64,000 nt of DNA from assembly GCF_030013205.1 (NCBI RefSeq), contig NZ_CP122648.1, one strand, 5' to 3'. Each line of letters begins with the position of its first letter. The first letter of the stretch is position 1. Both the position numbers and the translations under genes were made by a program. The stretch comes from Escherichia coli. Lineage in GTDB: Bacteria > Pseudomonadota > Gammaproteobacteria > Enterobacterales > Enterobacteriaceae. Under the pieces are notes generated by a model, which was not told where the DNA came from, made no database searches, and was given only the letters and a program-made list of their open reading frames with translations. Positions 19,825 to 22,461 of this stretch are shown piece after piece.

Positions 19825-21642
19825 TTAATTTTTGCTATCGTCATTAGTGACCGATACACATGATGGCATCCAGTCTTCTGATTCCTCCGTCAGTGTCACG
19901 TTTGAACGCAAACCGTGCTTCGTTTTCCGTTTCATATACTCCCTGCCATATTCCGCCATTGCCCCCGGCATATCTTTACCGAAGCGCGTCAGTGTTACAG
20001 GTTTACCAAACCCATGTGCCCTCATATAAGCCAGATAGGCATGATAGAGATACCTGCGTGGGCTGAATGGCACAATTTCAGCATTACCCACTAACAGGCC
20101 ATCACACATTACCGACGCCATGAGATAGCCGCAGAAGTCCACCAGCGAATCCCCCTCTCGCTTTATCGCCAGTGCTTCTTCAGATTTCTGCTGCTCATAT
20201 AACAGGCGTCTGGCTTCGTCCTGGTCAGCAAACCGTGTAAGCAGATGGCGAATCACTACCGCCAGCTCACCTTCTATTTTTTCCGCCAGCATTGGATCGC
20301 GTTCGTTCTCCGGTACAACTTCCGAAAAATTGAATATCACCCGACGACGTGAGATCCCCCCGCTGCGGTCACTGAATGACATGGCGTTATTGTTAACCGC
20401 CAGCACTACTGCCGGAATACGCGTTGAGTAGGGGGCTTTGTGTTTCGGGTCAATTGCCACCTTGTCACCGCCTGTAATGGCCTTAATTCCTGCCCCATCA
20501 CCAGCGTAGCGGGTCATATCCGGCATGATAATCAGCGAAAAGCCAACCACTAACGCGCGTTCCCTTGCATCTTCCAGCGCCTTCATGCTTGCCGATACTG
20601 TGTTGGCCTTACCCGCCAGCATGGTGCAAATCTCCGCCATCACGCTTTTACCACTTCCCCCTGGACCTGTTACCTCAATGAATAACTGCCAGTCGTACCG
20701 GTTCGCCAGCACCATGAATAATGCAGCCAGTACGCGATCCGCCTTGCGGTCATTCTCAGCCACCGAACGGCGTAACCACTTCCAGAAATTCGGCGCATGT
20801 GTTGCCAGCGTTTCCCCCTCTGCTGGTGGGCTGAAAGGTAATTCACTGGCAATTAACAACCAGTCGTTTTTGTTATGCTCCCGAAAATTACCTGTTCTGG
20901 TATCAAATACCCCGTTACTGAATCCAATCAGGTTACGGGCTGTATTCCCCATAACAGGCAAACTTAACTTCATGGTATCGACCGCCGATTTAATGGCGTT
21001 CTGCGAATAGCTGATCTCCGCATCAATGAAAATCTGTGCCATAGCTCGCTGTAATTCTTTATCCTGTACTGGCTCCCATACAACGCCGTTGTAATGGTGA
21101 ACAGTGTCAGAGTCAGCATGAATCGCCAGTTCACCGCCATAATGTGCCAGGAGAACTTCGCCGCGTTGACTTGCTCCCATCTGGTTAAGCGCCAGTGATG
21201 AAGCGTTATCGTCTTTTACCCGCTCTTTTTTCTTTACAGGCAGTTCAACTACCTTTTTCTTTTCCGCCTGCTCTGCCCGTTCACGTTCCAGATATTCGCG
21301 CCAGTTCTCCCGTTTCTGGCTGTGCATTCCTTCAGGGTAATAATCAGCATCCCTGACACCTGCCGCTGCCAGTTTCTGCCCGATGGTATTAACAAGCCCC
21401 GGACGCAATAACCCCGCCTGGTAGAGACGCACGCGATAGCGTCCGTCCGGTACGATTTGCAGGTTGTCCAGTTCGGCAAGTTGTTGCTCTCCAAGCCAGA
21501 CAGGTGGCACGTTATCGCCAGCCAGTCGCCCGTCCTGTTCCTGCCACTGCTTCGCATGTGCCCACGCATCACTACCCGCAAAAATGATGACTTCCGTCAT
21601 TTTGTCACGCGGCTGGTGTTTTAAATTTGGCGCTTTTTTCAT
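19825..21642 (-). CDS. Primase/helicase (P4-alpha-like, P-loop NTPase)
   Basis: ~605 aa; Walker A VTGPGGSGKS; architecture of satellite pri-rep proteins; ATG start chosen downstream of the GTG in the track ORF. Confidence 0.8.
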   Translation of the reverse strand: MKKAPNLKHQPRDKMTEVIIFAGSDAWAHAKQWQEQDGRLAGDNVPPVWLGEQQLAELDNLQIVPDGRYRVRLYQAGLLRPGLVNTIGQKLAAAGVRDADYYPEGMHSQKRENWREYLERERAEQAEKKKVVELPVKKKERVKDDNASSLALNQMGASQRGEVLLAHYGGELAIHADSDTVHHYNGVVWEPVQDKELQRAMAQIFIDAEISYSQNAIKSAVDTMKLSLPVMGNTARNLIGFSNGVFDTRTGNFREHNKNDWLLIASELPFSPPAEGETLATHAPNFWKWLRRSVAENDRKADRVLAALFMVLANRYDWQLFIEVTGPGGSGKSVMAEICTMLAGKANTVSASMKALEDARERALVVGFSLIIMPDMTRYAGDGAGIKAITGGDKVAIDPKHKAPYSTRIPAVVLAVNNNAMSFSDRSGGISRRRVIFNFSEVVPENERDPMLAEKIEGELAVVIRHLLTRFADQDEARRLLYEQQKSEEALAIKREGDSLVDFCGYLMASVMCDGLLVGNAEIVPFSPRRYLYHAYLAYMRAHGFGKPVTLTRFGKDMPGAMAEYGREYMKRKTKHGLRSNVTLTEESEDWMPSCVSVTNDDSKN

Positions 21643-21938
21643 TTCGGCTCTCTCCACGCGGCAATCATGTTTTTCAGTTCCTGCAGTTTTTTATCCACAT
21701 CCACACGTGACACATGGTTATTTCTGGAAGTCGGGATTTCCCGCCGGAATCTGCTAATAAAGATCTCCACGTTCAGCGAACTATGAAATGAATAGCCATC
21801 ACGAATAAAATACACACGGTCAAACATCAGTTCTTTTACCGTTACTCTGTTACCGTTCTTATCCAGATAAATAGCGCCGGGGATAATTTTGGGGTGTGCA
21901 TAACCGCTGGCAGTCAAGCCAGATAAATATGTTCTCAT
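21639..21938 (-). CDS. Hypothetical protein (99 aa)
   Basis: ORF overlapping the primase start; no recognisable motif. Confidence 0.5.
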   Translation of the reverse strand: MRTYLSGLTASGYAHPKIIPGAIYLDKNGNRVTVKELMFDRVYFIRDGYSFHSSLNVEIFISRFRREIPTSRNNHVSRVDVDKKLQELKNMIAAWREPK

Positions 21939-21944
21939 GATTAT

Positions 21945-22265
21945 TTATCCCCGATTTGAATCAGTATTCGCTTTCTTTATGGCATTTAATGCATCTGTGG
22001 CATTTTCAATGGTGCACCGTAACGAAATATCAAACTGCCCAAGCATTGCCAGTAACAAACCGATATTACCCATATCAATGCGCATGGCCTTTTCGTCATA
22101 GTCCTCATTTTCTGACGCATGCCACATCAGGCTACCAATTGACGCAACAGCCATTGATATATTGTCAGTAGCCCCATCAGCAGCGGAATAAACCTTTTTA
22201 GCAATATCATGCTCACAGTTAAAATGCGGATTAATCAGGTACTGGTAATTTGACATATCAGGCAT
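21945..22265 (-). CDS. Hypothetical protein (106 aa)
   Basis: ORF; start ATG overlaps the stop of the upstream 67 aa ORF (ATGCCTGA). Confidence 0.5.
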   Translation of the reverse strand: MPDMSNYQYLINPHFNCEHDIAKKVYSAADGATDNISMAVASIGSLMWHASENEDYDEKAMRIDMGNIGLLLAMLGQFDISLRCTIENATDALNAIKKANTDSNRG

Positions 22266-22461
22266 GGCACACCCCCTGACGAATACGGGCGGCGAATACC
22301 ATCACGTAGCCAGCCGGGGATTGCTGGCGTGCTTCCTGTTCACTGGTGGCCTCAATGGTAATCACGCGCGGTTGTGCCGTGCTCAGGGCGATAAAACGCC
22401 AGATGTATTTATTCAGGTTGTACGAGTCCCGCCCTTGCGGGTGTCTGGTATAATTTCTCAT
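22258..22461 (-). CDS. Hypothetical small protein (67 aa; MRNYTRHPQGRDSYNLNKYIW...)
   Basis: C-terminal part of the 302 aa track ORF; has a GAGG SD and overlaps the next gene's start. Confidence 0.45.
   Translation of the reverse strand: MRNYTRHPQGRDSYNLNKYIWRFIALSTAQPRVITIEATSEQEARQQSPAGYVMVFAARIRQGVCHA

Follow-up and report, generated by a model that had tools for sequence, protein, structure and literature searches.

The three small open reading frames (ORFs) that lie just before the primase gene in the stretch of Escherichia coli DNA considered here (64,000 nucleotides, called the window below) are the usual leading genes of a satellite replication operon, and as such they are mostly known already. 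All are on the minus strand: ORF1 (67 aa) at 22258-22461, ORF2 (106 aa) at 21945-22265, and ORF3 (99 aa) at 21639-21938. A preliminary description of the region had reported ORFs of these sizes in this place, and exactly the same three are called by PGAP in a locus that is 99.9% identical. The description had also put them forward as candidates for a novel small-protein system. That is not borne out, as ORF1 belongs to the Kil/Icd family and ORF3 to the RgdR family, within a known layout of PICI zones. The reading we favor, with a probability of roughly 60%, is that the trio opens the early/replication operon of a PICI-type satellite of 10.4 kb and works in the manner of P4.

The element itself is a PICI/P4-type phage satellite of E. 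coli, an identification that stems from its gene order, its att repeats, and its AlpA, the activator of E. coli PICIs (Fillol-Salom et al. 2018). The island occupies 10.4 kb between clpS and cspD, which is also where the PGAP-annotated twin locus places its genes, and it is laid out int-alpA-eta/kil-replication-capsid. It is flanked by a 66-nt att-like direct repeat (not assigned to a strand), whose left copy lies at 14691-14756 and whose right copy, adjoining int, lies at 25068-25133, the two spaced 10,377 nt apart. The tyrosine integrase (23806-25053, minus strand), taken from the ORF list, is annotated by PGAP as a tyrosine-type recombinase/integrase. The AlpA-like regulator/excisionase (23177-23386, minus strand), counterpart of P4 Vis/ORF88, matches phrog_2790 (2.7e-17), a family described as "excisionase and transcriptional regulator," and PGAP calls it an HTH regulator. 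Other genes of the island encode SSB, a ClpP-MCP fusion, and a DUF1441 protein (PHROG matches and PGAP annotation). In terms of the zones defined in PMC10111431 (Integration, Bro(eta), Replication, and Late), the island has what is expected of a Gram-negative PICI: a length in the range of about 10-15 kb, att repeats, an inward-facing int, alpA, a replicase with origin, and a late zone. By analogy with other Gram-negative PICIs, it may be induced by a helper phage and transferred at high frequency.

The replicase is a P4-family primase of 605 aa, counted from its ATG (19825-21642, minus strand). Its match to TIGR01613 (3.4e-27) falls short of the curated cut-off, with 95.1 bits against 108.7; phrog_864 is matched at 1e-192, and PGAP names it a DNA primase family protein. 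Just downstream of the gene, a segment at 19651-19822 (no strand assigned) combines TGGTGAACAG iterons with a palindrome and is probably the replication origin, a function read from the repeats alone. A match of the palindrome to a miRNA was set aside as spurious.

The three small ORFs are real genes, tightly packed and probably translationally coupled. A Shine-Dalgarno-like motif precedes each start in the chain, and all three ORFs match PHROG families. The stop of ORF1 and the start of ORF2 share 8 nt (ATGCCTGA), and the stop of ORF3 overlaps the primase start in the sequence ATGA (21642-21639). At these two junctions the preliminary description was right to speak of a chain of overlapping stop and start codons, but ORF2 and ORF3 are separated by a 6-nt gap (the TAA of ORF2 ends at 21945 and the ATG of ORF3 starts at 21938). 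A scan for consensus promoters gave nothing above background. The description had left it to be seen whether the genes are conserved across related islands, and they are: among 5,426 complete E. coli genomes, 473 (about 9%) carry ORF2, which is annotated as hypothetical throughout, and the spacing of the chain is fixed in more than 119 IMG/VR loci, in which ORF2 and ORF3 co-occur. Diverged islands have comparable short overlaps, which measure 8 nt in L004, L008, and O157 and 4 nt in L007. The ratio pN/pS is 0.34-0.38 for the three small ORFs (0.38 for ORF1, over codons 19-67, and 0.34 for ORF2) versus 0.08 for the primase.

Judged by its sequence, ORF1 (minus strand) is a member of the Kil/Icd family. 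It matches NCBIfam NF033153 with 70.1 bits (the cut-off is 25), residues 19-62 spanning the whole of the 48-position model, and phrog_6196 at 6e-42. P4 Kil, which corresponds to the C-terminal part of what used to be called the P4 "cI ORF," reaches 73.9 bits with this model, whose name goes back to Icd of phage P1. ORF1 is predicted to inhibit cell division in the host. According to the preliminary description, none of the three proteins carried a recognizable motif; this holds for ORF2, which has no match in Pfam or NCBIfam, but not for ORF1 nor for ORF3, a DUF4222 protein (1e-16). Among 50,697 phage records, tblastn found one match for ORF1 and none for ORF3.

What had been overlooked is that ORF1 constitutes the last 67 codons of a longer, Eta-like ORF of 302 codons (22258-23166, minus strand), whose ATG lies 10 nt past the stop of alpA and is served by a strong Shine-Dalgarno sequence, AGGGGAG. 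The nesting recurs in related islands. Of 22 non-redundant spacers between alpA and Icd, 13 are free of stops in the phase of Icd, as against 8-25 stops in each of the other frames; in about 40% of related spacers, the Eta-like frame is interrupted by stops or frameshifts. Its amino acid sequence shows no conservation beyond the part antisense to ylcI, and Pfam found nothing in either the 302-aa product or YlcI. An apparently conserved N-terminus (MxxKTKAxxGR) was rejected as a protein feature because the DNA forms a GC hairpin with compensatory changes. The hairpin, followed by a T-run (23130-23149), resembles an intrinsic terminator of the plus strand that closes the ylcI unit, and it is kept by such changes in diverged islands. 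That unit includes a gene of the YlcI/YnfO family (22652-22831, plus strand; NF041551, 63.3 bits; phrog_949), which lies antisense inside the Eta-like ORF, diverges from ORF1, and shares its third codon positions with the Eta-like frame. A second small ORF antisense to the Eta-like ORF (57 aa, 22889-23062, plus strand), hypothetical, is a PGAP CDS in the twin locus.

The early genes of the island resemble the left operon of P4, which runs vis(ORF88)-eta/kil-epsilon-orf151-orf106-alpha. In both, a gene of the AlpA/Vis type is followed directly by a long ORF that ends in a Kil/Icd protein of about 65 codons, the gene after kil starts 8 nt before the Kil stop (ATGCCTGA here, GTGCGTAA in P4), and small ORFs lead into a P4-family primase. 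According to PMC10111431, which draws on Forti 1999, P4 eta is coupled to the homologue of alpA, termination is averted when eta is translated, and Kil represents a truncated form of Eta. There are also differences. Searches with the Rfam C4/isrK immunity RNA found none at E<=1 within 14000-26000 nor at E<=10 within 22400-23200; with no CI/C4-type RNA detected, the immunity circuit of P4 is not fully present. Unlike in P4, the Eta-like ORF overlaps an antisense YlcI/YnfO gene, which could mean a different logic of control, and the late region has a ClpP-capsid fusion in place of sid, delta, and psu. Finally, ORF2 and ORF3 show no detectable homology to epsilon, ORF151, and ORF106, so their roles in the comparison follow from position only.

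The island is like other Gram-negative PICIs (EcCICFT073 and EcCIEDL933, the latter being O-island 51/CP-933C) in its order of int, alpA, DUF4222, replicase, SSB, and late genes. It differs in its DUF4222 allele, which is 34% identical to RgdR of O157 and without RGD, and in its replicase, a primase here versus a RepA-helicase in O157. ORF2 also fills the place between Icd and DUF4222 that is taken up by three other small ORFs in O157 and by a single one in strain EC9682. The immI operon of phage P1 (c4-icd-ant) likewise begins with a small protein of the Icd family as its first cistron, and from work by Riedel, Heinrich, and Schuster in 1993, translation of icd is reportedly coupled to that of the next gene. 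The resemblance ends there, as our island has no c4 RNA and the downstream gene is not an antirepressor of the Ant/Bro type (ORF2 being without a Pfam match).

ORF2 (minus strand) is the only one of the trio without a family name or function. Its PHROG match is phrog_15327 (1.4e-71), and a HMMER scan of 1.84 billion representatives gave 16 matches, three of which, large TPR/Ig-like repeat proteins, were judged to be spurious sums over repeats. Its distant homologues sit in the same slot of other islands. The AF2 model (mean pLDDT 77) has two long helices, for which Foldseek searches of PDB and BFVD returned only generic helical hairpins at E>0.28; those resembling TraM, EsxB, and Rop were given no meaning. 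Searches of PDB sequences with alignments of ORF2 and ORF3 produced nothing below E=0.18. Against P4 epsilon, whose slot it occupies, the ORF2 alignment reached an hhalign probability of 0.1%, with no significant match in a BFVD fold search; against P4 ORF106 (DUF5375) it again reached 0.1%, and against ORF151 there was nothing. ORF2 is a narrow, fast-evolving orphan family with a predicted helical hairpin. By its position it is a counterpart of P4 epsilon, the protein that binds the repressor of the helper and derepresses the helper prophage, a function that in ORF2 is putative. One might go further and suppose that it founds a family of satellite proteins that replace P4 epsilon, small helical-hairpin binders of a helper-phage or host protein. 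We think this rather improbable. If it were so, candidates for the partner would be a repressor and, in the part of a trigger, some phage accessory protein, and ORF2, with Kil/Icd and DUF4222, would set the specificity with which satellites kill cells or manipulate their helpers.

ORF3 (minus strand), going by profile and alignment, is a member of the RgdR/DUF4222 family. Residues 16-67 match PF13973 on model positions 1-52 of 53 (i-Evalue 1e-16), and phrog_285 is matched at 1.7e-21. With RgdR of O157 (ECs1581), it aligns without gaps from end to end (99 aa) at 34% identity, carrying PGA at residues 20-22 where RgdR has RGD; residue 20 varies within the RgdR clade as well (N/P/H/K). Its predicted structure combines a helix with a small barrel of the Tudor/SH3-like kind. 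Of the checks that the preliminary description had called for, homology searches have placed ORF1 with Kil/Icd and ORF3 with DUF4222, and structure prediction has left ORF2 a helical hairpin with no matching fold. In the loci that carry it, as in O157 and EC9682, DUF4222 usually lies directly before the replicase, be this of the primase, DUF927, or RepA-helicase type. Fillol-Salom et al. (2018) state that every E. coli PICI analyzed encodes RgdR. RgdR binds DNA without sequence specificity, and both it and its orthologue in CFT073 activate LEE1 and type III secretion (T3S) and repress motility, acting in trans and without the island; the RGD matters for T3S and motility, and natural variants have their activity switched by a single substitution at residue 20 (PMC3378721). 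In ORF3, activation of LEE1 and repression of motility are putative. We also think it rather improbable that DUF4222 is an RNA-polymerase-binding, Tudor-like factor, which would account for the pleiotropy of RgdR.

Family membership, nesting, overlaps, and conservation are what the sequences themselves show; anti-termination, killing, and the partners of ORF2 and ORF3 belong to a P4-like scheme that we infer by analogy and that would run as follows. A helper phage would turn on alpA, and ribosomes would then run from alpA into the Eta-like ORF, where translation would shield the transcript from premature termination (of the Rho type). Transcription could then reach ORF2, ORF3, and primase, to be translated as a coupled chain. 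The short Kil form alone could come from a promoter lying inside the Eta-like ORF. Kil/Icd would arrest division of the host or kill the cell. ORF2 would most likely bind a helper or host protein, and DUF4222 may be a nucleic-acid- or polymerase-associated factor of low specificity that serves the replicase and, like RgdR, spills over onto host promoters.

The preliminary description also held that genes in this position of a satellite often sense the helper, derepress, or interfere with phage. The guess was reasonable: the place is that of P4 kil and epsilon, and a screen in ECOR61 implicates an Icd-like gene and two small ORFs in phage-triggered death. The defense connection was not seen in PADLOC-DB, where ORF1 and ORF2 have no match and ORF3 has only a chance-level match to Cmr7 (E=0.02). 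In the ECOR61 transposon screen, cell death was elicited by orf24 of the T7 group, and suppressors fell in the Icd-like gene and in two overlapping small ORFs beside it; removal of the Icd-like gene abolishes death, all parts of the "superinfection exclusion" prophage locus are genetically required for cell death caused by the phage accessory gene, and suppressors in ECOR61 and ECOR15 map to Icd-like/Eta genes, adjoining small ORFs, and primase (Silas et al., bioRxiv 10.1101/2023.04.06.535777). Compared by its description, the locus is like ours: its Icd-like gene is extended at the N-terminus, a pair of small overlapping ORFs adjoins it, and a primase is linked. From this one could argue that the trio is a self-contained module for abortive infection, in which ORF2 and/or ORF3 sense a phage accessory protein or transduce its signal, release the toxicity of Kil/Icd, and exclude superinfecting phage, and it is to be expected of proteins in an arms race that the small ORFs evolve 4-5 times faster than primase. 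Yet the reconstitution in ECOR61 required all six linked genes, primase included, which fits the induction of a satellite and not a three-gene system; the small ORFs there, with 61 and 63 aa, differ in size from ours (106 and 99 aa); and the linkage of ORF2 and ORF3 is with the replicase allele, not with a sensor-like partner. Together with the lack of a PADLOC match, these points make such a module improbable.

That linkage also bears on a humbler role, in which ORF2 and ORF3 are accessory proteins of the replicase (a copy-number regulator like Cnr, a helper that binds the origin, or a loader) with no direct part in dealings with helper or host. In P4, the replication regulator Cnr is encoded just upstream of alpha, and we take it to be ORF106 (DUF5375). 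Here ORF3 is coupled to the replicase through ATGA, its family usually stands directly before a replicase, RgdR binds DNA without regard to sequence, and ORF2, ORF3, and the 5' end of the replicase travel together across differing int, alpA, and late modules. Homology to replication accessory proteins, which the preliminary description had held out as a more ordinary outcome, could not be shown, hhalign giving 0.1% against ORF106 for both ORF2 and ORF3. Moreover, the replicases that accompany DUF4222 have three unrelated cores, islands L072 and L073 carry short DUF4222 proteins in other places, RgdR needs no island for its trans effects on LEE1 and motility, and relatives of ORF2 in other islands precede a different family, phrog_6610. 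We regard a purely accessory role as somewhat unlikely. Much harder to credit is that ORF3 acts mainly as a regulator of host virulence and motility, carried as cargo, with ORF2 an unrelated moron. The activity of RgdR and its CFT073 orthologue on LEE1/T3S and motility speaks for it, but ORF3 shares only 34% of its residues with RgdR and bears PGA in place of RGD, a motif that includes residue 20, where one change alters activity; the family is nearly universal in E. coli PICIs regardless of LEE; and ORF3 occupies a position in the core operon, not at its accessory end.

Reading the trio as the first cistrons of a P4-like operon removes a false lead: families already described account for two of the three "unknown" ORFs, and the arrangement as a whole is that of the P4/PICI early operon. 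What it offers instead are more specific matters: the part that proteins of the ORF2 type play in the place of epsilon, the native role in the satellite life cycle of DUF4222/RgdR, which is known so far only through a side effect on the virulence genes of EHEC, and the Eta-like ORF, possibly kept open to prevent termination in PICIs in the way that eta does in P4. These bear on how Gram-negative PICIs are switched on and on how their hosts are killed or protected during phage attack.

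The three small genes directly upstream of the primase gene lie on the minus strand: ORF1 (67 aa) at 22258-22461, with its ATG at 22461, ORF2 (106 aa) at 21945-22265, and ORF3 (99 aa) at 21639-21938, followed by the primase ATG at 21642 (ORF listing and raw sequence). All three exist as the preliminary description had them, and PGAP annotates precisely these CDSs in the 99.9% identical locus of E. coli KGu016. The chain of overlapping stops and starts also proposed there is borne out in the raw sequence where ORF1 meets ORF2 (the 8-nt overlap ATGCCTGA) and where ORF3 meets the primase gene (a common ATGA), but not between ORF2 and ORF3, which are separated by a 6-nt gap (the ORF2 TAA ends at 21945, and the ORF3 ATG is at 21938). 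A purine-rich, Shine-Dalgarno-like motif can be read before each start (GAGG, AGGGGG, GGGGA, and GGAGAG). ORF1-ORF3 are real coding genes and evolve several-fold faster than the replicase: over sequence pairs at least 85% identical, pN/pS was 0.38 for the Icd domain of ORF1 (codons 19-67; 1.5 for its first 18 codons), 0.34 for ORF2, and 0.35 for ORF3, as against 0.08 for the primase and 0.13 for alpA.

The genes reside on the E. coli chromosome within a 10.4-kb phage satellite between clpS and cspD, and comparison of repeats found a 66-nt direct repeat at its two ends (14691-14756 and 25068-25133). The minus-strand order is integrase, an AlpA-type HTH gene, two small plus-strand genes (one of the YlcI/YnfO family), ORF1-ORF3, P4-family primase, a small ORF, SSB, a ClpP-protease/major-capsid fusion, and a DUF1441 protein. 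The arrangement is that of Gram-negative PICIs, Integration / Bro(eta) / Replication / Late (PMC10111431; PMC6092414). The island's replication origin is probably formed by TGGTGAACAG-type iterons and a long palindrome at 19651-19822, in the gap between the primase gene and the ORF that follows it; an Rfam match there to 'MIR1508' is spurious. GC-rich direct repeats of 94 nt with hairpin potential, 88% identical, lie just 3' of the capsid-fusion gene (16227-16320) and of the SSB gene (18761-18854); they may represent a terminator or a regulatory element present twice. Beyond the island, a match resembling the cspA thermoregulator spans cspD and its flanks (25337-25737, plus strand), at 41.7 bits against a gathering score of 78.

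ORF1 is a Kil/Icd homologue nested within an Eta-like ORF of 302 codons (22258-23166, minus strand, from the ORF listing), which ends as ORF1 and whose ATG, preceded by AGGGGAG, lies 10 nt past the alpA stop. The last ~50 residues of the old 'cI ORF' of phage P4 score 73.9 bits on the Kil/Icd model of ORF1, and a 65-codon kil frame can be read at the same place; the PHROG label 'transcriptional repressor' for the ORF1 family probably stems from that obsolete annotation. As a test of chance, stops were counted per frame in 22 non-redundant alpA-to-Icd spacers of related loci. The Icd-phase frame was stop-free over 450-990 nt in 13 of the 22, with 8-25 stops in each of the other two frames, and four further spacers had just 1-2 stops, in a shifted frame. 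The amino acids of the extension are not conserved: compared with ~85%-identical relatives, the ORF1-ylcI stretch shows non-synonymous differences at 24-35 of its 63 codons and no third-position bias, yet no stops arise, and a Pfam search of the ORF found no domain. It follows that the frame is kept open while its sequence is unconstrained. The Eta-like ORF thus looks like a counterpart of P4 eta, whose translation blocks premature termination, allowing read-through from the late promoter to genes downstream (PMC10111431, in a summary of Forti et al. 1999).

The island differs from P4 in that no C4/CI-type RNA was detectable in it and in that the Eta-like ORF runs antisense over a genuine YlcI/YnfO gene (22652-22831; 63 bits, with no match in a Pfam search). 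This gene, divergent from ORF1, and a second small ORF (22889-23062) are both on the plus strand and wholly within the Eta-like ORF, their third codon positions coinciding with those of the longer frame. YlcI might act as a small repressor at an internal promoter, a function for which Gram-negative PICIs have no known occupant. Directly after alpA, a GC hairpin and T-run (23130-23149, plus strand) forms a predicted terminator for the ylcI unit. It is maintained in diverged islands by compensatory changes, and in this way mimics a conserved 'N-terminus' of the Eta-like ORF. A second terminator-like hairpin (TGGTGCATCGCACCA and TTCGTTTTTA; 22538-22562, plus strand) is found within the 190 nt that separate the divergent ORF1 and ylcI; viewed on the minus strand, it occupies the leader just upstream of ORF1, the place of the CI/seqA structures in P4.

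ORF3 is a member of DUF4222, the family of the EHEC regulator RgdR (PF13973, 1e-16). In the O157:H7 island OI-51/CP-933C, the equivalent place, directly before a RepA-type replicase, is taken by a 99-aa DUF4222 gene; its product has the RgdR/ECs1581 RGD motif and, aligned ungapped with ORF3, is 34% identical. ORF3 has PGA in place of RGD. RgdR bound DNA without specificity in EMSA, and its residue 20 is critical to its activity (PMC3378721); this residue is variable even inside the RgdR clade. Two related islands encode short DUF4222 proteins (59-60 aa, barrel only; L072 3930-4112 and L073 3764-3943) upstream of Icd/ORF2-like genes rather than before a replicase, so neither the C-terminal helix nor the replicase-adjacent place is universal in the family. 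Over the first ~47 replicase codons, alleles of the primase and RepA-helicase types show 87% conservation in DNA (window 21500-21645 and loci L002, L078, and L081), alleles annotated as DUF927 share this 5' end, and phrog_2850 forms a separate N-terminal domain (residues 1-139). The shared end points to recombination breakpoints inside the replicase gene, with DUF4222 remaining linked to the N-terminal part.

The preliminary description had recognised no motif in any of the three genes and had suggested remote-homology and structure searches. Profile searches gave families for ORF1 and ORF3, and fold searches gave no significant match for ORF2, which is the sole true unknown among them. ORF2 has no match in Pfam, NCBIfam, or PADLOC, belongs to a family of unknown function (phrog_15327), and is annotated 'hypothetical protein' in every one of the 473 of 5,426 complete E. 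coli genomes that carry it. An indexed search returned E. coli-type relatives only. HMMER, run exhaustively against 1.84 billion representatives, gave 16 proteins, among them a handful of ~100-aa relatives (27-42% identity) and three large repeat proteins, discounted as spurious. The distant relatives occupy the corresponding slot of other int-AlpA islands, where they overlap a preceding Icd-like or ~60-aa ORF by 4 or 8 nt and are followed by an AAA_25/RepA or DUF927 replicase. An AF2 model (pLDDT 77) predicts two long helices forming a hairpin, for which searches of PDB and BFVD found nothing significant. In more than 119 IMG/VR loci, ORF2 accompanies the ORF3-type DUF4222 allele at fixed spacing while the surrounding int, alpA, ylcI, and late modules vary; where the DUF4222 allele is another, different small unknown families fill the slot. 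In P4, the helper derepression gene epsilon likewise follows kil with an 8-nt overlap (GTGCGTAA). Profile comparison showed no similarity of ORF2 to epsilon, ORF151, or ORF106 of P4, nor of ORF3 to ORF106.

As its families, nesting, overlaps, conservation, and linkage all indicate, the trio leads a P4/PICI-type early operon; the best-supported explanation (probability about 0.6) couples this with a mechanism drawn by analogy from P4. Translation of the Eta-like ORF, coupled to alpA, would license read-through, and Kil, ORF2, DUF4222, and primase would then be produced as a coupled chain. Kil would arrest or kill the host, ORF2, in the epsilon slot, may act by binding a protein, and DUF4222 may be tied to the replicase as a factor that associates with DNA or polymerase at low specificity. 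Other readings, none exclusive of this operon, are less probable. That ORF2 and ORF3 are replication accessory factors, as the linkage of DUF4222 to the replicase might suggest, is doubtful. That ORF3 is a host-virulence regulator borne as cargo is quite improbable: RgdR switches on LEE1 and type III secretion and also represses motility (PMC3378721), but ORF3 lacks the RGD motif.

A dedicated abortive-infection module is unlikely as well. In ECOR61, an accessory gene of the T7 group triggers cell death, suppressor insertions fell in an N-terminally extended Icd-like gene and in two adjoining overlapping small ORFs, death was abolished without the Icd-like gene, and reconstitution required all six linked genes, primase among them (Silas et al., bioRxiv 10.1101/2023.04.06.535777). 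In ECOR15, a P4 prophage caused death upon Abc1 expression, with suppressors in int, alpA, the Icd-like/Eta gene, a small ORF before primase, and primase (same source). These results fit the induction of a satellite's early operon, in which Kil is the effector, and do not single out a three-gene system. The argument from position within a satellite was sound, echoed as it is by P4 and ECOR61, but the proposed novel small-protein system gives way to an element of known kind, with two of its ORFs in recognisable families. The interest of the trio rests on ORF2 and on the native role of DUF4222.
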